Source: Planctomycetota bacterium
GTDB lineage: Bacteria; Planctomycetota; UBA8108; SXIK01
Assembly: GCA_965223845.1 (NCBI GenBank)
Contig: CBDCXR010000004.1
Location: 3,648,001-3,712,000 of the forward strand
Direction: 5' to 3'
Length of the DNA stretch: 64,000 nt
A program made the position numbers and the translations under genes. Positions 3,526 to 52,798 of this stretch are shown piece after piece. Positions within the stretch are counted from its first letter, which is position 1, and each line of letters starts with the position of its first letter. Below the pieces are notes generated by a model. It saw nothing but the letters and a program-made list of their open reading frames with translations, was not told the origin of the DNA and did no database searches.

Positions 3526-5744
3526 CCTCCGCTCGAGCGCTCATTTCGTCGGCGACGCTCGTCGCGGTCGGCCTCGGAGTGGTACTCGCCGCGCGCGAGG
3601 CGCAGGCGGGCGGTCCACTCCTCGCGGCTCCACGCGGGGAACCGTATCGCTGGGACAGCTCGCAGTCTCTCGTCCTCCATCCGACGACCTCGCGATTGGG
3701 AGCCATCGCGAGTCCGATCGATCTTCTCGAGGCGGCCGTGAGCGAGTGGGATGGCGTCGACACGTCACGGCTCCGCATCGAGATCGGAGATCCGGTTGCG
3801 ATCGACACGAGCGACCTCGATGTGGACTCCTTCGAGGATCTGATCGGTACGAACGATCGCACGAATCCGATCCTGTTCGACTCGGACGGCGACCTCTTCT
3901 CCGACCTCTACGGACCCGACAGCGGGGTCCTCGGCATCGCCGGTCCGAGCCTGATCCGTCCGTCGGAGCGCCGCATCATCAAGGGCTACGCGCTCTTCAA
4001 TGGTGAGGAGGTATCCATCGCCGACCGCACGACGATCGAGGCGGTGTTCACTCACGAGATCGGGCACCTTCTCAACCTCGACCACACTCAGATCAACGGT
4101 CGCCGTCTCTTTCGACCACTGCCTGAGTTTGGTGTGACGCCGACTTCGGCCAGCGTAGCAACGATGTATCCGGTGCTGATTCAGCACCGCGAGGTCGGCC
4201 CGCACCCGATGGCGTCGCTTCACAGCGACGATCGCGCGGCGCTCTCCGCCCTGTACCCGACGGGCGATTTCGCGTCCCGAACGGCGGCCATCACGGGAAA
4301 CGTGTACGACTTCGACGGAGTGACTCCTCTTCACGGCGTCAACGTGGTCGCGCGAAACGTCGACTCGCCACTGAACGACGCTTACTCTGCGGTGACCGGT
4401 CAGCTCATCCGGGAGGAGCACGACTTCGAGCCCGCGGAGAAGCGGGGCGAGTTCGCACTCCGCGGTCTCGTGCCGGGAGCGAGCTACAAGCTCTACGTCG
4501 AAGAGATCGTCGGCTCCTTCGCCGAAGGCTCGAGCCTCGGCCCGCTCGATCCGCCCCTCGACGTCGACCCTTCGAGCTCGAATGCACTCCTCGAGTTCTG
4601 GAATGACGCCGAAGCGGCCACCGCGCCGCCCGACGACGTCGGCGATGCCAGCGAAATCACTCTGGCTCAGGGGGAGAGTCGATCGGGCGTCGATGTCGTC
4701 TTCAACGGGATTGCCCCGCGAGTTCAGGGGATCGTCCCGTCGGCGCTCGGGTACGAGGACGGCGGGCGCGTGACGATCACCGGAGCCAATCTCGATCGGC
4801 TGATCGAGATTCGGCTGGTCGGCCCCGGGCCGGTCGCGCTCGCCAATCCCGTCGTGATCGACGGCGCGACTCTCGAAGCGGACGTGCCGCCGTTCGTGGT
4901 GCCCGGCTCGTACCACGTCACCGTCCGGACGACAAAGGGCCGCGGGACGAGTGAGCTCGCGCTCTACCGCTCCGTCGAGCCGCGCGCGATCGTTACGGTG
5001 ATCGCTCCATCGTCGGTGCCGAACGACGCGACCTCGGTCGTCGAAGTCTTCGGCTCCCACCTCCTCGGAGCAAGACGTGTCGACCTCGTGGCGACCGGGT
5101 CTCCCGTGGTCGAGCTCGACGACGTGATCGTCGCCTTCGACCAGAGTCCGACCGCACCGAGCGGCGTCGGACCGTACAAAATCATCGCGCACATTCCGGC
5201 CGGAGTGCTGCCGCGCGACTACGAGGTCGTCGTGCACAACACCGCCGGAACGAGCGAGACCGGCTTCGCGCGACTGAGTGTCACCGAGCAGCTCCCCGAG
5301 CTCTCGGGCGTCGTCGACCCGGGCGCGATCGGGAACGCACGTGAACGCGAGATCGAAATCTTTGGCCGCCACCTCGCCGGCACCCACTCGGTCGTGCTCG
5401 TCGGCAGCGACGGCGATGTTCCCCTCACCTTAAGGTCGACGACGCTCCGTTCCGTCGTCGCGAGCGTGCCGGCGAGAGTGCCCGAGGGCGACTACGCGAT
5501 CGAGCTCGAGAACACGCGCGGCACCACGGGAGGCGCTCGGCTCACGATCGTTCACGAATCGGGTGGCGGCGGGGGAGGAGGAGGCTGCGGTGCGGTGCTC
5601 CCCCCCGGAAGCGGGCGCCCGCCCGGCTTCGAGCTGCCGGCGATCGTCATCGCCGCTCTCGTTCTGCGGGGTCTCGTTCTCGCGCGGCGCAACGGCGGCG
5701 ACCTCTCCCGCTCGAACGAATCTCATGGACGAGTTCGAGGTTGA
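3522..5744 (+). CDS. Matrixin (metzincin M10)-like metalloprotease with IPT/TIG-like repeats and a C-terminal Gly-rich Cys/TM sorting signal
   Basis: Signal peptide; HEIGHLLNLDH zinc motif; Met-turn ATMYP; three repeated beta-rich units (ITGANL/VFGSHL/IFGRHL); GGGGGGGGCG-hydrophobic-RR tail. Confidence 0.85.
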   Translation: MTSARALISSATLVAVGLGVVLAAREAQAGGPLLAAPRGEPYRWDSSQSLVLHPTTSRLGAIASPIDLLEAAVSEWDGVDTSRLRIEIGDPVAIDTSDLDVDSFEDLIGTNDRTNPILFDSDGDLFSDLYGPDSGVLGIAGPSLIRPSERRIIKGYALFNGEEVSIADRTTIEAVFTHEIGHLLNLDHTQINGRRLFRPLPEFGVTPTSASVATMYPVLIQHREVGPHPMASLHSDDRAALSALYPTGDFASRTAAITGNVYDFDGVTPLHGVNVVARNVDSPLNDAYSAVTGQLIREEHDFEPAEKRGEFALRGLVPGASYKLYVEEIVGSFAEGSSLGPLDPPLDVDPSSSNALLEFWNDAEAATAPPDDVGDASEITLAQGESRSGVDVVFNGIAPRVQGIVPSALGYEDGGRVTITGANLDRLIEIRLVGPGPVALANPVVIDGATLEADVPPFVVPGSYHVTVRTTKGRGTSELALYRSVEPRAIVTVIAPSSVPNDATSVVEVFGSHLLGARRVDLVATGSPVVELDDVIVAFDQSPTAPSGVGPYKIIAHIPAGVLPRDYEVVVHNTAGTSETGFARLSVTEQLPELSGVVDPGAIGNAREREIEIFGRHLAGTHSVVLVGSDGDVPLTLRSTTLRSVVASVPARVPEGDYAIELENTRGTTGGARLTIVHESGGGGGGGGCGAVLPPGSGRPPGFELPAIVIAALVLRGLVLARRNGGDLSRSNESHGRVRG

Positions 5745-5846
5745 CGCGCGGGCGGCCTGCGTTTGTCGTAGCGCGGTGATCGACCGCATCGCAGGCGAAG
5801 TTCGCGGTGGGGATGGACCAGTCGTACGCACGAAAGGGACGCGAGA

Positions 5847-6623
5847 GTGAGCCAAACGCCGGTTGCCCTCGTCACGGGTTCGTCGCGAGGCATCGGCCGC
5901 GCCATCGCGGTCGAGCTCGCTCGAGCGGGTTATGACATCGCCGTACACTGTCGCGCGAATCGGGAAGGGGCGAAAACGACCGCCGACGAGATCCACGCCG
6001 CCGGCCGGAGGAGCGAGGTGTTCGCCGCCGATCTCGCGTCGCCGGCAGCGCGGAGTGAGCTCGTCGAGAAGGTGAAGGCCGCGTTCCCGACGCTCGACGT
6101 GCTCGTGAACAATGCTGGCGCCGCGCCGAAGGTGCGCGCCGACCTTCTCGATCTCGAAGAAGACGAGTTCGACGACACCTTCGACACCAATTTTCGCGGC
6201 GCGTTCTTTCTCACGCGGGACATCGCGAACTGGATGCTCGAGACGCGAGACGCGGAGCCGGAGCGCCGCCTCTCGATCGTCAACATTTCGAGCGTGTCGG
6301 AGTACGCACCGACCGTGAATCGCGCCGCGTACTGCGTAGCCAAGGCGGGTCTCGGCATGATGACCAAGCTGTTCGCCGTCCGCCTCGCGGCGGCGAACAT
6401 TCCGGTGAACGCCGTTCGTCCGGGGATCATCGACACCGATATGACTGGCCCTGTGAAAGCGAAGTACGACCAGCGCATCGCAGAGGGACTCACGCCACTC
6501 CGACGCTGGGGCCAGCCGGAAGACGTCGCCCGAGCCGTGCGCGCGCTCGTCCGGGGCGATTTCGACTTCGCGACCGGAAGCGTCGTCGATCTCGACGGCG
6601 GATTTCACATCCGCGAGCTCTGA
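5847..6623 (+). CDS. SDR family oxidoreductase (3-ketoacyl-ACP reductase-like)
   Basis: TGSSRGIG, NNAG, YCVAK, DGG motifs. Confidence 0.92.
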   Translation: MSQTPVALVTGSSRGIGRAIAVELARAGYDIAVHCRANREGAKTTADEIHAAGRRSEVFAADLASPAARSELVEKVKAAFPTLDVLVNNAGAAPKVRADLLDLEEDEFDDTFDTNFRGAFFLTRDIANWMLETRDAEPERRLSIVNISSVSEYAPTVNRAAYCVAKAGLGMMTKLFAVRLAAANIPVNAVRPGIIDTDMTGPVKAKYDQRIAEGLTPLRRWGQPEDVARAVRALVRGDFDFATGSVVDLDGGFHIREL

Positions 6624-9633: not shown

Positions 9634-11067
9634 TTAACCCGAGCCCGTCACCGACTTCAGGTCCGCTCGCTGCTCCGAGTAGTTCTCGCTAAACGCGAGC
9701 ACCGCGGGATCGGGCTCCTCCCCCCACTGTTCGCACGCGTGCCGGTAGAACTCCGGCCACCAGTTCTCGTGCGCCGTAAGTCCCTTCTCCCGATACTCCT
9801 CCCAGCGGTTGAGGATGCGGCTCCAGGTTCGATCGCCGAACTCGACCGCTTCCTTCCGGTTCGCGAACTCGGGAACGAGAAACTGACGGCCGATCTGCGC
9901 GTGGAGCACCTCGTCCGCCCAGTCGAAGTCCTGAATCGTCGCCATGAGAGGAAGTCCGGACTCGGTGGCGAGCTCCCACTCGTAGCGCTTCCCGGTCTTC
10001 GTCATGAGCCCCTGCTCGATGTAGTAGAGCACCGAATGACTCTCGAGCGGATTGCACACGGTGTTCAGATTGAGTGACCAGGTGTGATTGACGCGCGCCC
10101 TCCGCCAGTCGACCCCGAGCGCGGCGAAACCGACTTCGCCGAGCATCGCGTGGCGCGCTTCGTCCCAGAGCTGGCGCGACATCGCGAGGTAGTAGTCCCA
10201 ATCCTTTCCGGTCGTCCGGTGGATGATGCTCGCCATCATCTCGGGGACGTCGATCTCGCGGAGGCGCTTGAAGAGGAGAAGGAGCATCTTCGCTTTCGCG
10301 GGATAGTCGTCGCTGTAGATGAACGCCTCCGCGTTCACTCCACCGTTGTACGGATCGGAGAACCGCTCGTCCCGGGCCGGCACGGGATCGAACTCGTAGG
10401 GCGTCGCGGAGTGCATTCTCTCGGGCGATGAATCCGCCGTATCGCTCGTCCCGTCGAGTCCGCCGGCCGCTTCGAGGCACGCGGACAGACGATCGAGCCA
10501 CGGCTTCGCGCGCGTCCGCGCCTCCGAGTCGACGATGCCGGCGACCGCCTCGCCTCCGAACGCGAGCATGTCGTCGATCTCGAGGAGGGCGAATCGGAGC
10601 ACGCGGACGGAGGGGCGGTCCGTCATCGGGTGCGTCGCACGAACGTACTCCGACATTCCCGCTCGAACCTCGGGTAGCCCGATCTCGTAGACGCCGAGAA
10701 GCAGTTCTTCCGTCGTCGGCGCGCCGAGGATCTCGTCGAAAAGCACCTCGAGTGCCGGGTGAGGGACCTTGTCGAGGTGAAGCGGTGGCTCGCGCATTTC
10801 ACCGACGCGCCCCCGAAGCGCGGCGACGTGCTCGGCGCACAGATACGAGTGGTGACTGAACGCCGTCTTCAGCTCGTAGATCGGCTCCGCCGTGAGGCGC
10901 GCGGTGAGGATCCCGTGGAGACGCTTGAGTGCGTAGTGGAATCGCTTCAGACGATCGACGCAGGCTTCGACGCTGAGGCCTGGTCCGGCCGCTTCCTCAA
11001 GCGAGCAGACGCCCGCGAGAACGGGAATGCCGCGATAAGCGTGCGGCGAATCCGCCGAATCATTCAT
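9634..11067 (-). CDS. Tandem ferritin-like (DUF455-like) putative diiron protein
   Basis: Helical protein with metal-ligand-type motifs HSYLCAEH, REIDVPE, WDEARH, YYIEQ, ADEVLH. Confidence 0.6.
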   Translation of the reverse strand: MNDSADSPHAYRGIPVLAGVCSLEEAAGPGLSVEACVDRLKRFHYALKRLHGILTARLTAEPIYELKTAFSHHSYLCAEHVAALRGRVGEMREPPLHLDKVPHPALEVLFDEILGAPTTEELLLGVYEIGLPEVRAGMSEYVRATHPMTDRPSVRVLRFALLEIDDMLAFGGEAVAGIVDSEARTRAKPWLDRLSACLEAAGGLDGTSDTADSSPERMHSATPYEFDPVPARDERFSDPYNGGVNAEAFIYSDDYPAKAKMLLLLFKRLREIDVPEMMASIIHRTTGKDWDYYLAMSRQLWDEARHAMLGEVGFAALGVDWRRARVNHTWSLNLNTVCNPLESHSVLYYIEQGLMTKTGKRYEWELATESGLPLMATIQDFDWADEVLHAQIGRQFLVPEFANRKEAVEFGDRTWSRILNRWEEYREKGLTAHENWWPEFYRHACEQWGEEPDPAVLAFSENYSEQRADLKSVTGSG

Positions 11068-11745: not shown

Positions 11746-13506
11746 TCAGACGTCGATCTTCCCACCGAGAATGGGGAGCCCGCCGACGATTCCTCGCACC
11801 CCGGTGACCTCGCCGTGGACGATGATGTCCGAGCCGTCGACGATGCCGACCTCGACTTCGCGCGAGACGACGCCGCCGGAGCCGCCACCGCCACCGCCGC
11901 CGCACGCGACGGGGATGATCGCAATCGCGACGACCGCACCGGTCGCCATCAGGGTCGAGAATCGGCGCGAACGCCGGAGCCGCCAGGCCGCAACGAAGCT
12001 CACTCCGAAGAGAAGGAACCACGCGTCGCCCGATTCCGCCGGTGGTGCCGGATCGACGACGTCCGCCACAAGGACGAAGTGCGTCGCGGAGCCGCGCGTG
12101 AGCGTCCGCTCCTCGATCGCGATGTCGATCGCACCGTCGTTCCGGCTGAAGCGCTGCGGGAACGCCAGCTCTTCCTCTCCCGCGTCGAGCATTCCGTTCT
12201 CGTTCTCGTCGAGGTAGAGGGTCACGTCGCCGAGCAGCCTCGATTCGTTGCCGGCTCCACTTGCCGTGAAGCGCATCCCGCTCCACTCGCCGGGCTCGAG
12301 GTCGGTCCTCCACTCGATGCGACCGGCGAAGAGAAGCGCTCGATTCCCGCCGTTCATGAGCTTCGGCGCGAATCCCGGTCTCGCGGTGAGATCGCTCCGG
12401 CGACGATCGATATCGACCGCCGTGATCACGACGCGGTCGGAATCATCTCCACAGTCGTCGTCGACCGAAAACTCGAACTCGAAGTCGGTGTCGGAATTCA
12501 CGGGCGGGAGAATGACCGTCGCCTCGATCTCGTCCGTTCCGGTGAAGCTCTCGACCTCCGGACCGGCGATCTGCCGCCACGAGTAGGTTCGGATTCCGCT
12601 CGTCGCGACCCCCTTGAGCGCTACCGCATCGAGCTCGGCGGCGAAGGCGTCCCCGCCCGCATCGGCGAGTGGCGGCGGACACGTCGATGCGACGACGAGC
12701 ACTTCGTCGGTGTCGGAGCCGGAGTCGTTGGTCGCCGTGAGGGCGAAGACGAGATCGGAGTCGAAGAACACCGGCGGCAGCTCGACCGTCAGCAGGCTCG
12801 TCATCTCGCCGCTCAGAGTCGCGGGAGGGCCGGAGATCTGCTCCCAGGAGAACTCGAGGTTTTCGCCGAGGCTCCGGCTACCGTCGAGCATCACCGTCGC
12901 GCCGCCGCGGGCGATCTGATCGGGGCCCGCGTCGGCGAACGGGCTCACGATCACACCGCGAACGACTCGGCCGTCGAACAGCGCCGGGACGACGCTGAGG
13001 CCCGCCGAGTTCGTGAGCACGTTGTTGATCGGCGTCACGCCGGCGAGGCCGTCGACGAGCCCGACGCGCGTAGCTCGGCCGGCCGGCATCAGGATGTCGA
13101 AATCCATGCGCATGAGCGAGTGATCGCCCGCCGGAAGGACGTTCGACGTATCCCCTCCGAGATCGTGCACGCCACCGTAGGCGACCACGCCGGGACTCTG
13201 AACGCCGTTGAAGAAGTTCCACGCCGAAGCGTCGGTCCCGTCGATCGTCACGTCGACGAGCTGGAGATCCGCCGGATCGTACTGCACGCTCGACGAGAAG
13301 GCGTAGACGTCGAAATCGTGCTCGGCGCGAACGAAGACCGAAACGCTCGTCTGATCCGCGCTCGCGTTGACATCTTCGACGTACATCCGGTCGACGCCGA
13401 GCGCGCCCGTCGGGCTCGCGAGGGCCAATACGAGCACAGAAAACGATCCGAAAACGAGACATCGGTTCACGAAGGAGCGGTCGCCCTGTTCGCGGCGTGC
13501 GGACAT
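11746..13506 (-). CDS. Cohesin-like domain plus PKD/Ig-like repeat surface protein with an internal membrane-hairpin/lipobox anchor (putative anchoring scaffoldin)
   Basis: Signal peptide; cohesin-like VSVFV...AFSSSVQYDPADL; two ADAG..Q...LDGS..FSWEQISGP-type PKD repeats; C-terminal TM-RLRRSRR-hydrophobic-VAC-GGGGGGG. Start ATG 13506 or GTG 13470. Confidence 0.7.
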   Translation of the reverse strand: MSARREQGDRSFVNRCLVFGSFSVLVLALASPTGALGVDRMYVEDVNASADQTSVSVFVRAEHDFDVYAFSSSVQYDPADLQLVDVTIDGTDASAWNFFNGVQSPGVVAYGGVHDLGGDTSNVLPAGDHSLMRMDFDILMPAGRATRVGLVDGLAGVTPINNVLTNSAGLSVVPALFDGRVVRGVIVSPFADAGPDQIARGGATVMLDGSRSLGENLEFSWEQISGPPATLSGEMTSLLTVELPPVFFDSDLVFALTATNDSGSDTDEVLVVASTCPPPLADAGGDAFAAELDAVALKGVATSGIRTYSWRQIAGPEVESFTGTDEIEATVILPPVNSDTDFEFEFSVDDDCGDDSDRVVITAVDIDRRRSDLTARPGFAPKLMNGGNRALLFAGRIEWRTDLEPGEWSGMRFTASGAGNESRLLGDVTLYLDENENGMLDAGEEELAFPQRFSRNDGAIDIAIEERTLTRGSATHFVLVADVVDPAPPAESGDAWFLLFGVSFVAAWRLRRSRRFSTLMATGAVVAIAIIPVACGGGGGGGSGGVVSREVEVGIVDGSDIIVHGEVTGVRGIVGGLPILGGKIDV

Positions 13507-13745
13507 CGGGAATCTCCAGCGAAGGAAGGAGGTGCGTCGGGGCACGGAGAGAAGCAAGTAGAAGCCGGCGCACGCACTGGTTTCGGCCGGTGAACGGCCC
13601 TCTCGGACCAGTTCGTACGCAGACTTCTACGATACCACCTGCCCGTGCCAGTGAAGTGCCGGCCGGCAGTCCGGCGGGCAGTCAAAGAACTCCTACCCCG
13701 TCGATACGGAAACTCTCGTGCCAGTTTGCTCGCGCCGGGCGGCGA

Positions 13746-15277: not shown

Positions 15278-16669
15278 ATGCGCACTCGTCCGACCGTTCG
15301 CTTCGCCGGTTCGACCCGTTCCGCCGTCGCCCTGCTCGCCTCCGTCGCCGCTCTCTCGGTCGGCTGCGACCCGGCTCCGCAGGGAGCCTCCGGCGGGAGC
15401 GCGGACGACCCGGCGGCGGTTTACACACGCGCGGAAGCGCTCGCGAGCCGCCACCGGGTGAGCGAGGCCATCGCGACGATCGAGGCGTACGCGCAGGACC
15501 GCTCGGGACCACTGAGTTCGGACGCGGAGCGCGCGCTCTACGAACGCTGGGCCGACCTCCTCCTTCGCGCCTCCCGTCCAGACGACGCCGCGCGCGCCCT
15601 CGCCCGGATCGCCGCGACGGCTCGCCTCGAGCGCCGTGACCTCCGCGCACGCGTCGCGTCCGCGTGCGGGCGCTACGACGAGGCGCTTCGATGGTTCGCA
15701 CGGCTGCCGGACTCGGATCGGCTCCGCAGCCCCGGCGCATTCGCCGACACGGCGCTTCAAGGCGGACGGCCTCGCCTCGCCGCGGCGCTCGCCGCGACCG
15801 AGCTCGCCCGCGATCCGTGGCTCGACGAGACGACCCTAGTGTTTGGACGCGCTCTCGCGCGCTGCGGTCAGAAGGAGGCCGCAGGGGCCTTTCTCGAACG
15901 GTATCGCCGCGGGGAATCGTTCCGGAACGCGCTCGATCTCGCGGTCGAGCTCGAGTTCCACGGCCGGGATGTGGCCGCGCGCCTTCAGCGGGCGAAAGCC
16001 GAACACGCGAGAGGACGCTGGTTCGAGAGCATGAAGCTCGCGAACGACGCCCTCGAGCTCGACCGGAACGCCGGCGCGGCGTACGTTCACCTCGCGGAAC
16101 TCTCGACTCAGCTCGCGCGACCCGCGGATGCGATCCGCGTACTCGAGCGACTTCCGCCCCACGCGCGCAAGTGGCTCGCTCTCGGAAAAGCCTACGAAGC
16201 GAACGACGATCGCGAGCGCGCGAAGCACGCATACGAGGAGGCGGCGGAGCTGGACGACCAACTCACCGAAGCGGCCGACGGGCTCTCTCGCCTCGAATCA
16301 CCGTCCACAGCATCTGCGCTGGATGGGACGCGCCGCGCCGTCCGCGACGCTACCGCCGGCAAGTCGCTCTCGACGACGACTCCGGAGCTCCGGCGGCTCG
16401 CGGACGCGTACGCGGTAGCCAGCCGAGACTTCGAGGCTCGGGGGATTGCGCTCCTCACCGTGCGACTCCAGCCGGGCGACACGGCGCTCCGGCGCTGGGC
16501 GACGCGGCACTTCTCCGCGCCGAGCGATGCCTTCGTCCGCGTCTGGCTTCTCTCCCCAGTCGATACTCGGTCGACAGCGACCGAGCTCGCAGCACTCGGC
16601 GTCGACGTAACGGAGCTCAAGGCTCTTCCCGCGCTCGCTGCCTCGCCGGTCGGTGAGCCCGGGCGGTGA
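15278..16669 (+). CDS. TPR-repeat lipoprotein
   Basis: Lipobox LSVGC; Ala-rich TPR-like helices (AYVHLAE, WLALGKAY); GTGA overlap with next gene. Confidence 0.75.
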   Translation: MRTRPTVRFAGSTRSAVALLASVAALSVGCDPAPQGASGGSADDPAAVYTRAEALASRHRVSEAIATIEAYAQDRSGPLSSDAERALYERWADLLLRASRPDDAARALARIAATARLERRDLRARVASACGRYDEALRWFARLPDSDRLRSPGAFADTALQGGRPRLAAALAATELARDPWLDETTLVFGRALARCGQKEAAGAFLERYRRGESFRNALDLAVELEFHGRDVAARLQRAKAEHARGRWFESMKLANDALELDRNAGAAYVHLAELSTQLARPADAIRVLERLPPHARKWLALGKAYEANDDRERAKHAYEEAAELDDQLTEAADGLSRLESPSTASALDGTRRAVRDATAGKSLSTTTPELRRLADAYAVASRDFEARGIALLTVRLQPGDTALRRWATRHFSAPSDAFVRVWLLSPVDTRSTATELAALGVDVTELKALPALAASPVGEPGR

Positions 16670-18438
16670 AGCCGGCGAAAGGGACTGCGATGGCGACGGC
16701 TTCCAATCGGTACCCACCGCGACGAGGGGGACCTGCGGCGTTCCGTATCCTCGCGCCCGTGACCGCCCTCGTCCTCGCGCTCACGTCCGGAGCCTGTGAG
16801 CGGGCCGCCGAGTCGCCCGCCGGAGACGGCATCCGCTTCACCGACGTGACGCTCTCCGCCGGAATCGACTTCGTCCACGTGAGTGGACGCGCTGGGGCGC
16901 GGGCCATGCCCGAGACGATCGGCGGCGGTGTCGCGTGGATCGACTTCGACGACGACGGGACGCTCGATCTCTATTTCGTGAGCGGCCACTCGCAGCCGAC
17001 TTCCGGCGCCCCGGGCGACGCCGGAAACCGCCTCTATCGCGGACGCGGCGACGGCAGGTTCGAGGACGTGACGGAGGCCGCCGGAGTCGGGGACCGCGGC
17101 TACGGGATGGGTGTCGCTGTCGGCGACTACAACGGCGACGGGAAGGACGACATCTACGTCACCAATTACGGACGGAACACGCTCTACCGAAACGAAGGCG
17201 GCAGGTTCACCGATGTGACCGAGGTCGCGGGAGTCGGCGCGCCGGAGTGGAGCACGAGCGCGGCGTTCCTCGATTACGACGACGATGGCTGGCTCGATCT
17301 CTACGTCTGCCAGTACGTCGACTACGATCCCAACCATCACTGCACTCGCGATGGGCACCCCGCCTACTGCAGCCCTAAGGAGTTCGACGGCGTCCCCGAT
17401 CGGCTGTTTCGAAACCGCGGGGACGGTACCTTCGAAGACGTGAGCGAGCTCGCCGGCGTCGCGATCGCGGGACGGATGGACGGAAAATCCCTCGGCGTCG
17501 TCGTCCTCGACTACGATCGCGACGGCGACGAGGACATCTACGTCGCGTGCGACCAAGTGCGGAATCTCCTCTTCGCGAATCGCGGCGACGGGCGCTTCGA
17601 CGAGGTGGGACTCGTCGCGAACGTCGCGTACTCGCGGGAGGGCCGGTCGCAGGCGGGCATGGGAGTCGATGCCGGCGATGTCGACTCCGATGGCGATCTC
17701 GACATCGTCGTCACCAACTTCGCCGACGAGCCGAACGCGCTCTACCTCGCAGACGAGGCGGGGTTCTTCACCGAAGCGAGCGCGGCGCTCGGGCTGGGAG
17801 GACCGTCGTTGGTTCCGCTCGGATTCGGCGTTCTCTTCGTCGATGTCGATCTCGATTCGGATCTCGATCTCTACGTCGCGAACGGACACGTGCAGGACGA
17901 TCCGGGCAGTGTTCGCCCCGGCCGGACCTTCGAGCAGAGCGACCAGATCCTGCTGAACGACGGACGCGGTCGGCTCCGCGACGTGTCGGCGGAAGCGGGC
18001 TCGCCGTTCGCGCGGCGCTACGTGAGTCGCGGAGCGGCGGCGGGCGACTACGACGGGGACGGCGATCTCGACATCGTCGTCGTTCACATCGATGCGCCGC
18101 CTGCACTCCTCAGGAACGACAGCGCTCGCGGCGCGTGGATCGCGTTCGATCTCACCGCGCGCGCTCGTTCGCGGAACGGGTACGGGGCGCGAGTGACCGT
18201 CCACGCGCGGAGGACGCGAGACGGGAGCCCGTTCGTCCGCGTCGCCGAATGCCGCGCGGCGCGAAGCTACGCCGCGTCCTCGGATCCGCGCGTGCGCTTC
18301 GGGCTGGGAGCGGAACCGGTCACGGTCGAGCGCGTCGAGATCCTTTGGCCGTCGGGAGCGGCTCACACTCTCGAACGACCGTCGCTCGGCGAGGTCCACG
18401 CGGTCGCGGAACCCCCGCGACCCACGCCGCCGCGCTAG
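16666..18438 (+). CDS. CRTAC1 family protein (FG-GAP/VCBS repeats plus ASPIC/UnbV domain)
   Basis: Repeated DxDxDGxxDLYV motifs, FxDVT..AG, C-terminal VRFGLG...VEILWPSG; lipobox-like TSGAC. Confidence 0.92.
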   Translation: MKPAKGTAMATASNRYPPRRGGPAAFRILAPVTALVLALTSGACERAAESPAGDGIRFTDVTLSAGIDFVHVSGRAGARAMPETIGGGVAWIDFDDDGTLDLYFVSGHSQPTSGAPGDAGNRLYRGRGDGRFEDVTEAAGVGDRGYGMGVAVGDYNGDGKDDIYVTNYGRNTLYRNEGGRFTDVTEVAGVGAPEWSTSAAFLDYDDDGWLDLYVCQYVDYDPNHHCTRDGHPAYCSPKEFDGVPDRLFRNRGDGTFEDVSELAGVAIAGRMDGKSLGVVVLDYDRDGDEDIYVACDQVRNLLFANRGDGRFDEVGLVANVAYSREGRSQAGMGVDAGDVDSDGDLDIVVTNFADEPNALYLADEAGFFTEASAALGLGGPSLVPLGFGVLFVDVDLDSDLDLYVANGHVQDDPGSVRPGRTFEQSDQILLNDGRGRLRDVSAEAGSPFARRYVSRGAAAGDYDGDGDLDIVVVHIDAPPALLRNDSARGAWIAFDLTARARSRNGYGARVTVHARRTRDGSPFVRVAECRAARSYAASSDPRVRFGLGAEPVTVERVEILWPSGAAHTLERPSLGEVHAVAEPPRPTPPR

Positions 18439-18787: not shown

Positions 18788-21727
18788 ATGTCCCGCCGTA
18801 CTGTCGGGCTAGCTGTAGCCGCCGCTACTCTCGTTTCACTCGCTGGGCCCGCTTCGGCTCAGACGACCGACGAAGGTTTCATCAATCAATGGCTCGCGTT
18901 CCCCCCGATCACGCGTGTCATCGGGGGCAACTCGCCCGGAATCGATCTCCTTCGCGTAGATTACATCGCCGATGGCGATGAAACCTTCGAGGCGACGATG
19001 CTGCCGACGGAGGACACCGAGGTCGAGCCGGACTTCTTCGATCCCGACTCACCCTCGGTCGGCCTCGCCGATCCGGCCGCGGAGAGCATCTTCACCGTAT
19101 GGGACAATGCCGAGATCGATCCACAGCTCGACACGATGGACATCGCCGCGCGCTTCGGCGAATCGCCCGACTCGGTCTTCTACGGAATCGTCTACATCAA
19201 CGTCGAAGGCGACCAGCCCATCGAGGGCTTCGTCGAGCTCGGAAGCGACGACTCCGTGCAGGTGAAGATCGACGACTGTGAGGCCTTCGTCCGCAATATC
19301 GCTCGCGGGTGCGGCGGCGCAGGCGTCGTCCAGGATCGCGCGGCCGTCACGCTCGCCCCGGGACCTCACCGCGTCATGATCAAGGTGTTCCAGGGCGGCG
19401 GCGGCTTCTGCTATCGCCTGCGGCTCACGGATGCGGAAGGCGTGTCGCTTACCGTCGACGAGCGCATCTCGGTCGGAATCGACCCGGATGATTTCGGCCT
19501 CGAGTCGCTCGACCCCGTGGGGCTTTCGCTCCAGCGAACGGTCACTCCCGACGTTCTCCCGCGCATTTCGCAGGACAACGTAGTCGACGTCAGTGTCGCG
19601 TTCGAAAAGACGCTCCCGACTCTGGCTGACGATGTCGAAGTCGTCGTCGAGGAAGTTCTCGCCGACGGCCTCACGATTACGTCGGCGACGCCGGATCCGA
19701 CGTCGAACGCCGATGGAATCGCGCGCTGGAATACGACGGTGGGCGCGCTCGTCGCGGACGGGATCTCCTACACGATCGAGATCACGGAGAAGGGTGAGTA
19801 CGACCTCGTCGGTCGCGTCACGGTCGGAACCGCACCGGCTTGCGGGACGGGCAGCGGAACGATTCTCGCCCTCGATCTCCAGGGAATCCTCCTCGGCGAC
19901 CTCGTCGGCGGTGGTGAGGGGCTCGGGGATTCCGATCCGCCTCCGTTCGCTGCGATCAACATCGACACTGGGCTCTTCATGACCCAAGACGAGGTGAACG
20001 GGAGCGACGGCAACACGTCCGACAACGACGGGATCAATCCCGCGCCGGTCGACGAGAGTGACGTCATCGACTCTGTGTTCTTCATCGACGACGAAAACAC
20101 CGACATTCAGATCATCAACTCGGGTGGCGTCGAGTACCAGTTCATCGAGGGCGACGCTCATCCGGTGAGCTGGAACGGAATCCTGAGCAACGTCACGCAC
20201 GACCGAGACAAGGGAGTCGGAAACATCTTCGTCGGTGGCGAAGGTGGCATCGCGACCGGTGTCGGCGTCCACGCGTCGGCGGGAGTGACGTTCGATCTCG
20301 CCGGAATGCGGGACGCGTATCCCGGTCAGATCGGTGTGGTGACCGGCATCGTCGGCATGGACACGTGCGGAGGGTCGGTCAACAACTACATCATCTTCAG
20401 CAATGACGACGAAGTGCTCGAGGAGCCGCTCTTCATCCAGTCGGCGACCTCGAACACCGGCGAGTTCGTCGCGCTCATCATTCCTGAAGAGGCGACGTAT
20501 ATGACCTTCGCTGCGGGCGACGCCGGAAACGGCATCGGCTGCGACCACGGTGTGTTCGGCGACATGCGCGTCCTATCGGTCGAAGACGCCGTGCTCCCGC
20601 CCGGAAACGCAGCCTGCGCACGCGATGACGACGGCAACCTCGCGCTCACTTGGGAGCACATCGGCTCGAAGCTCGGAGAGTTCCGGATCACCGCGAACGG
20701 TGAGCAAGTCGGAACGGCAGCGGGTGACGCTCTCAGCGCGACCGTCCCGTCCGCCTCGCTTCCCGATGGGGTCGTGGAGGTCTGCGTCGAGAACAGCGAA
20801 GGCGCCGCGTGCTGCGCGACCGTCGGTGGAACCTCGGTCAACATCAACTGCGGCGGTCCGGCGCTGAACGGATTCGTCGATGGCCGAAACTGGGGGAGCG
20901 ATACCAACACGAACCCGAGTCCGTTCCTCGTCGCCGGTGGAAACACGGCCGATTTCAGCAACGGCTTCAGCCCGCCGATCGGCGTCGCGGACACGCAGCT
21001 CACCGAGCCGGAGTTCGTCGACGATCCGGAACGCAGCCGCCTCTTCGCGACGGAGCGCTGGGCGGACGGCGACGTCGTCTACAACTTCCCGGTGGCGAAC
21101 GGCGACTACGAGGTGTTCCTCCTGTTCGCCGAAGGTTGCTGCAGCGATGGCTGTGAGGACCTCGACGACCCGGCGGAATCGCTCGGAAATTGCCGCGTCT
21201 TCGACATCTTGATCAACGGCGATGTCGTCGAAGATCAGTTCTCGCAGCACGTCGAGGCTCAGCGGGAGCTGGGCGAGGATCTTCCGAACGCGAACTGGGG
21301 TATCGCGCTCGTCAAGGGCCCCTACCTCGTCGAGGACTCGAGTGAGATCGAAGTCCGCATCCAGGATCTCGGCGGCGGCAACCCGCCGGAGAACGCGTCG
21401 ATCAAGGGAATCTCGATCCGCGCGGCGGGCGTCGGTGGCGCTCAGATCCGCTACGGCGACGTCAACAACGACGGCGCGGTCAACATCGCGGATGCGATCT
21501 ACAAGCTGAACAATCTCTTCGGCGACGGCCCCGTGCCGACGTGTGCGGAGACTGCCGACGTGAACTCCGACGAGGCGTACAACATCGCCGACGCGATCTT
21601 CCTCCTCAACAACCTCTTCGGTGACGGTCCGCCTCCGATCGACGGATTCGGTCCCCAGGGATTCGACTGCGGAGAGGATCCGGACCCCGCGAACGCACTC
21701 GGTTGCGCGCTCTACGACAAGTGCTAG
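18788..21727 (+). CDS. Large secreted multi-lectin protein (galactose-binding/PA14-like, Ig-like, NPCBM-like, malectin-like) with C-terminal dockerin
   Basis: SD GGAGG; signal peptide ASA-Q; GSDDSVQV...HRVMIKV; GVGVHA...DAGNGIGCDHGVFG; INCGG...FATERW...LLFAE...RVFDILING; duplicated GDVNNDG/ADVNSD dockerin. Confidence 0.8.
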   Translation: MSRRTVGLAVAAATLVSLAGPASAQTTDEGFINQWLAFPPITRVIGGNSPGIDLLRVDYIADGDETFEATMLPTEDTEVEPDFFDPDSPSVGLADPAAESIFTVWDNAEIDPQLDTMDIAARFGESPDSVFYGIVYINVEGDQPIEGFVELGSDDSVQVKIDDCEAFVRNIARGCGGAGVVQDRAAVTLAPGPHRVMIKVFQGGGGFCYRLRLTDAEGVSLTVDERISVGIDPDDFGLESLDPVGLSLQRTVTPDVLPRISQDNVVDVSVAFEKTLPTLADDVEVVVEEVLADGLTITSATPDPTSNADGIARWNTTVGALVADGISYTIEITEKGEYDLVGRVTVGTAPACGTGSGTILALDLQGILLGDLVGGGEGLGDSDPPPFAAINIDTGLFMTQDEVNGSDGNTSDNDGINPAPVDESDVIDSVFFIDDENTDIQIINSGGVEYQFIEGDAHPVSWNGILSNVTHDRDKGVGNIFVGGEGGIATGVGVHASAGVTFDLAGMRDAYPGQIGVVTGIVGMDTCGGSVNNYIIFSNDDEVLEEPLFIQSATSNTGEFVALIIPEEATYMTFAAGDAGNGIGCDHGVFGDMRVLSVEDAVLPPGNAACARDDDGNLALTWEHIGSKLGEFRITANGEQVGTAAGDALSATVPSASLPDGVVEVCVENSEGAACCATVGGTSVNINCGGPALNGFVDGRNWGSDTNTNPSPFLVAGGNTADFSNGFSPPIGVADTQLTEPEFVDDPERSRLFATERWADGDVVYNFPVANGDYEVFLLFAEGCCSDGCEDLDDPAESLGNCRVFDILINGDVVEDQFSQHVEAQRELGEDLPNANWGIALVKGPYLVEDSSEIEVRIQDLGGGNPPENASIKGISIRAAGVGGAQIRYGDVNNDGAVNIADAIYKLNNLFGDGPVPTCAETADVNSDEAYNIADAIFLLNNLFGDGPPPIDGFGPQGFDCGEDPDPANALGCALYDKC

Positions 21728-52254: not shown

Positions 52255-52798
52255 CCACGCCTTCGGTCGAGACGGCCCCTTCGGGCGGGACGGGGGCGGA
52301 TCGGGCCGCCCAGAGGTACCAGAAGACTGCGGTGACGACAATGGTCACTCCCTGCCACACGTAGTGGTGCGCTTCGTCGAAGAGCGATGGATAGGCGTCT
52401 CCGACCAGCATCAGCGTCACCATCCGCACTTGATTGAGAACGAAGAGGAGAGCGGCTCCGCACCCGAGGCCGACGACCTTAGCGCGCACCGAGGCCGGAA
52501 AAGCGAGGACGGCCGCGAGCAGGATCAAGAAGACGTAGAGGCCCGTGCAGCCGATGACGACCTCCGCGGTAAACATACCGACGGTGAGGAACGCACCGTT
52601 TCGAGTGACGGCGATGCCGATGAGGTCGAGAATTCCGTGCGTCGTCGCCGCGGCCAGATCGATCATCGGCTGCTCGCAAACGGCGCGGAATCCCGGGAGG
52701 ACGGAGATCCCCATGATCAGCCCGAGCAAGACCAGGACCCGAATCGAGAATCCGGTGCTGGTATCGGCCCAGGCTAGACCCCAGAGTTTCTTGAGCAT
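52241..52798 (-). CDS. Exosortase/archaeosortase family protein (XrtH-like)
   Basis: Multi-TM; catalytic Cys (IGCTG), Arg (LNQVR), His (AHHYVWQ); AAVLAFPA. Confidence 0.85.

Follow-up and report, generated by a model that had tools for sequence, protein, structure and literature searches.

A conserved C-terminal module in a planctomycete protein with a cohesin-like domain: a beta-sandwich interrupted by a two-helix hairpin and a lipobox-like cysteine

Introduction

Several described systems resemble parts of the protein considered here, the product of a gene (11746-13557, minus strand; 603 amino acids from a TTG start, according to the open reading frame (ORF) list and the translation) in a 64,000-nucleotide stretch of the genome of a Planctomycetota bacterium (lineage UBA8108; SXIK01; assembly GCA_965223845.1, contig CBDCXR010000004.1, positions 3,648,001 to 3,712,000 of the forward strand). 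This whole stretch is called the window, and coordinates count from its first letter. Classical lipoprotein signals, served by Lgt, LspA and Lnt, carry the canonical lipobox [LVI][ASTVI][GAS]C. Tripartite C-terminal sorting signals are paired with their enzymes (LPXTG/sortase, PEP-CTERM/exosortase, GlyGly-CTERM/rhombosortase and PGF-CTERM/archaeosortase), a helix followed by a basic cluster being the geometry of those cut by sortase-, exosortase- or rhombosortase-type enzymes. In the GAIN/GPS region of adhesion G protein-coupled receptors and in SEA domains the chain is cut within the fold, and the pieces are held together by a shared beta-sheet. A further anchor type is catalogued as NF058595.1 ‘invert_tail’, a curated hidden Markov model (HMM) of NCBIfam (release 20.0, cut-off 37 bits) described as a lipo-invert putative C-terminal anchoring domain.

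We propose, with a probability of roughly 60%, that the planctomycete protein is an exported protein in which the last loop of a C-terminal beta-sandwich is replaced by a membrane hairpin, the second helix of which is an internal lipoprotein signal processed by Lgt and LspA. The idea of such an anchor is already known to curators, as NF058595 attests; what is new here is a divergent planctomycete branch of it and a homologue that has the same domain and no hairpin.

Results

A conserved C-terminal module

The original prediction had placed a transmembrane segment, an RLRRSRR cluster, a second hydrophobic stretch ending in VAC, a glycine run and a beta tail at the end of this gene, and the translation contains all of them. 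In the order of the protein (all on the minus strand), the first part of a C-terminal beta-sandwich (12058-12402, residues 386-500), with strands at model residues 2-115 of an AlphaFold2 (AF2) model and with HFVLVADV as its last strand, is followed by the linker VDPAPPAESGD (12025-12057, residues 501-511) and a first hydrophobic helix, AWFLLFGVSFVAAW (11983-12024, residues 512-525; an AF2 helix at model residues 125-142). The basic loop RLRRSRR (11962-11982, residues 526-532) leads into a second hydrophobic helix, FSTLMATGAVVAIAIIPVA (11905-11961, residues 533-551; an AF2 helix at model residues 149-161), made up of an h-region and a lipobox-like IPVA that precedes Cys552 (11902-11904, gca on the plus strand), which by translation and conservation is a putative diacylglyceryl site. 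The Gly-rich tether GGGGGGGSGG (11872-11901, residues 553-562) and a tail of 41 residues, VVSREVEVGIVDGSDIIVHGEVTGVRGIVGGLPILGGKIDV (11749-11871, residues 563-603), complete the protein ahead of the stop codon (11746-11748; the translated part being 11749-13557). AF2 and a tail HMM identify the tail as the last three strands of the sandwich, and an LP..G motif is conserved in it across the alignments.

A profile of four modules, searched against 1.84 billion cluster representatives, matched 1029 proteins at E<=1e-3. The best 150 of these were of two kinds, giant proteins with the beta-domain alone in tandem and proteins with the full module. The latter number 51, and the tail ends at most 8 residues from the C-terminus in 51/51; together with the protein of the window they form the 52-sequence set used below. 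The original prediction had staked its reading on conservation of the cysteine in homologues, and the residue is invariant, both in the alignment (40/40) and among the module-bearing proteins (52/52). In the 52 sequences it is preceded by Ala (32), Gly (13) or Ser (7), position +2 is occupied by Gly (30), Ser (15), Asp (4), Lys (2) or His (1), so that 45/52 have Gly or Ser there, and position -3 is Pro in 20, Leu in 10 and another residue in 22. Median values for the loop that joins the helices are 10 residues in length and +4 in net charge, no loop falling below +2; for the second hydrophobic stretch the median length is 18 residues, and an uncharged stretch of at least 12 residues stands at the place of helix 1 in all 52. 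Domain, helix 1, basic loop, helix 2 ending in [AGS]-Cys, Gly tether and tail thus form a conserved C-terminal unit. The cargo upstream of it differs, L031/P0017 carrying FG-GAP repeats and a Golvesin C-terminal domain in place of cohesin and PKD domains, and the module therefore travels as a unit.

Within the phylum, the beta-domain was matched in 42 of 301 sampled genomes (nine candidates scored per genome), and matches extending to model position 214 or beyond (of 222) were found at six places in five genomes of this sample, the present one included. Hairpin, cysteine and tail were seen by eye in four of the five places fetched, G005:C30 falling outside the pattern used. A search with a four-row alignment returned three loci from Planctomycetota metagenome-assembled genomes with a match to the domain only, a word-indexed homologue search with residues 386-603 gave a single match (a JGI hypothetical protein), and the best score in the ESM Atlas, 0.77, was under the meaningful level.

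A genome-wide search for the layout, which the original prediction had called for, recovered this gene and no second protein-like copy: the layout pattern at ORF ends picked out ten frames in the 7.9-Mb genome, and by eye the other nine are S/T/P/R-rich off-frame ORFs. Further copies in the same genome were also sought with NF058595, with 28 matches at E<=10 and none over the cut-off; by eye the next two are a Ser/Thr-kinase-like internal helix (L002) and a polytopic protein (L004).

The tail completes the interrupted beta-sandwich

As had been predicted, the 41 residues of the tail form the last part of the interrupted sandwich. A natural homologue without hairpin, P0111, shows at the level of sequence that the tail is part of the domain. 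P0111 has 522 residues and the same upstream architecture as the protein of the window (N-terminal region, PKD, beta-domain), with 37% identity over PKD and domain and 34% over the N-terminal region. An HMM built from the 40 C-terminal residues of each of the 52 modules matches P0111 at residues 399-435 (E 5.5e-17); this match starts 9 residues past the domain match with no hairpin between, the stretch reading ...RFFLVVDLAAGAPAGPSGEVRFDLLSAGDLSLLGAETGVSIPVQGLPLHGPPL... The remaining residues of P0111 (436-522) form a C-terminal extension with two DxNxD-type loops that look dockerin-like by eye; Pfam gave no match to this extension at E<=0.1. In the tandem-repeat proteins, a weak tail-like match was found within 60 residues of 118 of the 543 domain copies that reach the domain end, most often at an offset of 6 residues (79/118).

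The AF2 model covers residues 386-603 (model residue 1 being residue 386) and was made from a 40-row alignment. Its mean predicted local distance difference test (pLDDT) value is 86.7, with 92-98 in the domain, 56-78 in both helices and the Gly run, and 94-97 in the tail, the strands of which lie at model residues 182-187, 193-197 and 205-207. When the low-confidence hairpin was trimmed and the model was compared by VIA-align, single-domain beta-sandwiches aligned over model residues 1..217/218, and model residue 215 or beyond was reached in 44 of the best 50 rows, these ranges giving the first and last aligned residue only. Sialidase N-terminal modules aligned at Z 9.9 and 9.3 over 133 residues (root-mean-square deviation 3.0 for the row at Z 9.9) and cohesins of 140-154 residues at Z 7.2-7.8 over 123-130 residues; values of this size show that the sandwich arrangement is shared, and nothing beyond that.

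When the domain (model residues 1-124) and the tail (167-218) were submitted to folding as two chains, the score was 0.47, against 0.01 for the best control, with a partner pLDDT of at least 66 and at least 95% of contacts agreeing between runs. The mark for this score was reached by 58/80 solved complexes and 2/110 mismatched pairs, and scores of 0.60 or less were obtained by only 7 of the 80 solved complexes and by both mismatches that passed. For the halves of one domain such a predicted pass weakly supports their compatibility, and does not speak for binding in a cell.

The segment ahead of the cysteine resembles a lipoprotein signal

The stretch that begins with the Arg cluster and ends at the cysteine resembles a lipoprotein signal, in line with the original prediction, having RLRRSRR as n-region and 19 uncharged residues before the invariant, lipobox-like Cys. 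In the lipobox, P-V-A-C, positions -1 and -2 fit and -3 is Pro. Examples of proline at -3 in the family are IPVAC, LPLAC and IPISC, and N-terminal lipoprotein candidates of the same genome mostly have L, A or V there (by eye); proline at this place may be a family-specific feature. By its place in the chain the segment departs from a lipoprotein signal: the cysteine stands at position 552 of 603, and the protein has another signal peptide at its N-terminus. The predicted topology fits, with the positive loop inside and helix 2 oriented as a signal peptide.

A lipoprotein regular expression gave 16 matches in the genome, 13 of them within 100 residues of the start of the frame (e.g. ...ALAVGCGGGGGGGG), and such N-terminal candidates also carry C-GGGG; the rest are this gene (position 548 of a 626-residue frame) and two chance-like matches near the ends of short frames. 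The processing enzymes are encoded in the genome, with one gene for LspA, three Lgt-family matches over the cut-off and one Lnt match over the cut-off. The three Lgt-family matches, against a single LspA, lie at G000:C4 6826018, 6128053 and 2877489.

NF058595 scored 26.7 bits against the whole protein, 28.5 against its last 218 residues, 30.2 against its last 116 residues and 29.5 in the genome scan, all under the cut-off of 37. The alignment starts at helix 1 and pairs residues 512-560 with model positions 28/29-81 of 113. Across 41 related genomes the model matched 12 times at E<=0.001, each time under the cut-off; four of these matches show the layout described here in a tail (in this gene, in L023 and L031 from G002, and in L025 from G005), and the other eight are ordinary N-terminal lipoprotein signals followed by C-GGGG, a cross-match that adds to the likeness.

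The body of the protein and its genomic context

By eye, the ATG at 13506 (M18) is a likelier start than the TTG; it opens a Sec-type signal peptide composed of MSARREQGDRSFVNR, a hydrophobic core and GALG, the cleavage site also being a by-eye reading. Comparable signal peptides stand at the N-termini of the relatives L023 and L025. The N-terminal domain (12949-13404, minus strand, residues 52-203) is predicted to have a cohesin fold. Its Pfam match to Cohesin (PF00963) is weak (15.7 bits, E 0.018; 18.8 bits in the genome scan; cut-off 24.1), its AF2 pLDDT is 94.5, and the top Foldseek matches listed are cohesins, at E values from 2.3e-8 to about 2e-6, with template modelling scores of 0.71/0.77 for the match of best E and up to 0.74/0.80 among the matches listed.

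Two PKD-like domains follow (12403-12945, minus strand, residues ~205-385; Pfam K319L-like_PKD, E 2.1e-15, in two stretches), and the NCBIfam M36-peptidase models match only this PKD region (residues 205-385). No Pfam family matched the C-terminal beta-domain, and the module profile search found the same domain repeated in tandem in the giant proteins. Within the split sandwich there is an EF-hand-like loop, DENENGMLDAGE (12166-12201, minus strand, residues 453-464), the D, N, N and G of which are invariant in the four-row alignment, a pattern that suggests calcium binding.

In this genome 125 dockerin matches pass the cut-off; cohesin has 12 matches, of which four pass. Together with the cohesin fold, these counts suggest an extensive planctomycete system of cohesins and dockerins in which this gene would encode a membrane-anchored cohesin. 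The job of the anchored protein is likely to be the presentation of a cohesin to the many dockerin-bearing proteins of this genome. A gene for a protein with malectin and dockerin (18788-21724, plus strand) lies 5 kb away, and an FG-GAP/ASPIC (UnbV) gene occupies 16666-18435 (plus strand); the relative in G005 (L038) likewise has nearby an FG-GAP/ASPIC gene, of 37% identity, as well as a dockerin segment. When eight proteins of the window were compared by tblastn with eight related loci, only the FG-GAP/ASPIC gene and dockerin segments were shared.

Three minus-strand ORFs of the window had no Pfam family at E<=1e-5, namely 9634-11067 (477 aa), 3765-5387 (540 aa) and 5430-6608 (392 aa), the first of them following closely downstream of infA and the anchor gene. 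Contig C1 (15,005 bases) has a guanine-plus-cytosine fraction of 0.48, against 0.63-0.68 in the other three contigs, and may be a foreign element or contamination.

Discussion

In the mechanism that we propose, the N-terminal signal peptide would direct Sec export of the body until helix 1, crossing from outside to inside, stops transfer. The basic loop would stay in the cytoplasm as the n-region of the internal signal, and helix 2, the internal lipoprotein signal peptide, would re-export the tail. Lgt would then place diacylglycerol on Cys552, LspA would cut between Ala551 and Cys552, and Lnt would perhaps add a third acyl chain. The resulting lipopeptide of ~52 residues would remain lodged in the sandwich, supplying its last strands, so that a lipid close to the C-terminal end would keep the protein on the outer face of the cytoplasmic membrane; barring a further cut, the hairpin would anchor the large fragment as well.

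Several points weigh against this reading. Proline stands at -3, here and in 20/52 family members, where the canonical lipobox has L, V or I, and helix 1 has only 14 uncharged residues in this protein, which is short for a membrane span. The packing of the tail on the domain is read from predicted confidence and alignment ranges; a Foldseek search of the module against the PDB gave no match at E<=0.001, and 425 of the 543 tandem domain copies have no tail-like match at an independent E value below 1. The action of Lgt and LspA on Cys552 is drawn from the established pathway, and in the literature searched, which comprised titles and abstract openings with most subscription journals outside the search, we found no report of these enzymes acting on an internal signal so far from the N-terminus. 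Finally, both fragments would be membrane-bound, which leaves the advantage over a plain C-terminal helix unexplained.

The alternative that survives best, though we consider it unlikely, is a plain two-helix membrane hairpin in an uncut and unlipidated chain, with the cysteine in another role. Such a hairpin accounts for the anchoring and for the positive-inside loop, and both the non-canonical, proline-bearing lipobox and the lack, among the titles and abstracts searched, of a paper showing processing are in its favour. It leaves unexplained why the cysteine is present in 52/52 sequences, always after A, G or S and mostly before G or S, why the Gly tether resembles that of the lipoprotein candidates of the same genome and why NF058595 cross-matches ordinary N-terminal lipoprotein signals.

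A second alternative, which we regard as quite improbable, takes processing one step further and lets a second membrane protease, besides LspA at the cysteine, cut before helix 1 and remove the hairpin, as the original prediction had supposed. In this two-step anchoring in trans, LspA would free a lipidated mini-protein woven into the last domain, the body would be held only by non-covalent strand complementation with this lipidated tail, and the cohesin protein could then move to the outer membrane or the surface like an ordinary lipoprotein. The model would explain the need for a lipid, and the tail is indeed integral to the fold. Helix 1 with its basic cluster shares the geometry of C-terminal sorting signals, and the genome has nine rhomboid-family and two exosortase-family matches, none of them tied to this protein. 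In the window there is an exosortase-family match (PF09721, 41.6 bits; 52310-52735, minus strand) in a 270-aa open frame, a stronger one lying elsewhere in the genome.

The excision itself found no support in the comparison. In the 40 residues before the basic loop the 52 sequences are A/P/G-rich, often with a Pro shortly after the helix begins, and share no motif before helix 1 or at its start, and there is no PEP-like signature. No sortase-like or protease gene was found within ~10 kb of the gene, none of its neighbours thus being a candidate for the second cut. A regular expression for C-terminal helix-plus-basic tails elsewhere in the genome gave 46 matches, none of them like helix 1; by eye, a few PEP-CTERM-like C-termini are among the 46. 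The LolA Pfam model was not found in the genome (91.7% complete), so a lipid-held complex would be without an obvious onward carrier.

An artefact, in which the loss of a stop codon joined two genes, one for a protein with a C-terminal anchor and one for a small lipoprotein, or translation of the tail begins at an internal start such as the ATG (Met537) within the second helix, is very improbable, since 51 independent cluster representatives have the in-frame fusion, as do the related genomes G001, G002, G005, G096 and G223, no Met is conserved at the place of Met537, and a six-segment signal-plus-tail profile found no stand-alone protein of 39-151 aa at E<=0.01 among its best 8000 candidates, a search of limited sensitivity in which Gly runs probably swamped the list and which is not evidence of absence.

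If the internal signal is processed as we propose, the reach of Lgt and LspA extends far into an exported polypeptide, and lipoprotein prediction would have to change, current tools looking at N-termini. Lipid anchoring near the C-terminus by the splitting of a domain would then be a mode of attachment outside the papers that could be searched. This would be the one cohesin protein of the genome with such a built-in membrane anchor, against 125 dockerin matches, and thereby a candidate for organising a cohesin-dockerin system on the planctomycete surface. Were the two-step device true, it would be a new route of surface display in diderm bacteria.

Compared with the systems described above, the module shares with GAIN/GPS and SEA domains, if LspA cuts, that a small fragment would supply strands of the domain of the large one. 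In place of autoproteolysis inside the domain, a membrane signal peptidase would here cut an inserted hairpin, and there is no relation in sequence or fold. With the tripartite sorting signals it has in common that the last domain is followed by a linker, a hydrophobic helix and an Arg-rich cluster, and that the purpose is attachment near the C-terminus. It differs from them in having no signature motif, 71 more residues after the basic cluster and no adjoining sorting enzyme; the stretch before helix 1 (PAPPAESGD) is not that of a PEP-CTERM signal, nor does the signal lie at the extreme C-terminus. The likeness to a classical lipoprotein signal extends over RLRRSRR, the 19-residue h-region, the small residues before the cysteine and the G/S-rich tether, whereas the signal here lies ~530 residues into an exported protein, behind a stop-transfer helix, and often has Pro at -3.

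NF058595 shares the order of helix, basic cluster, lipoprotein-like signal with Cys, Gly run and short tail at the C-terminus, a layout read from the name of the model and from what it aligns to; no paper on lipo-invert, NF058595 or this architecture was found in the literature search. Its own tail (model positions 82-113) does not align with the tail of this protein, and none of the 40 family members scanned scores above the 28.5 bits obtained here. By layout the module works like NF058595 and is not a scored member of it: it is a real, conserved and divergent planctomycete member of a catalogued anchor type, the function of which is recorded as ‘putative’.

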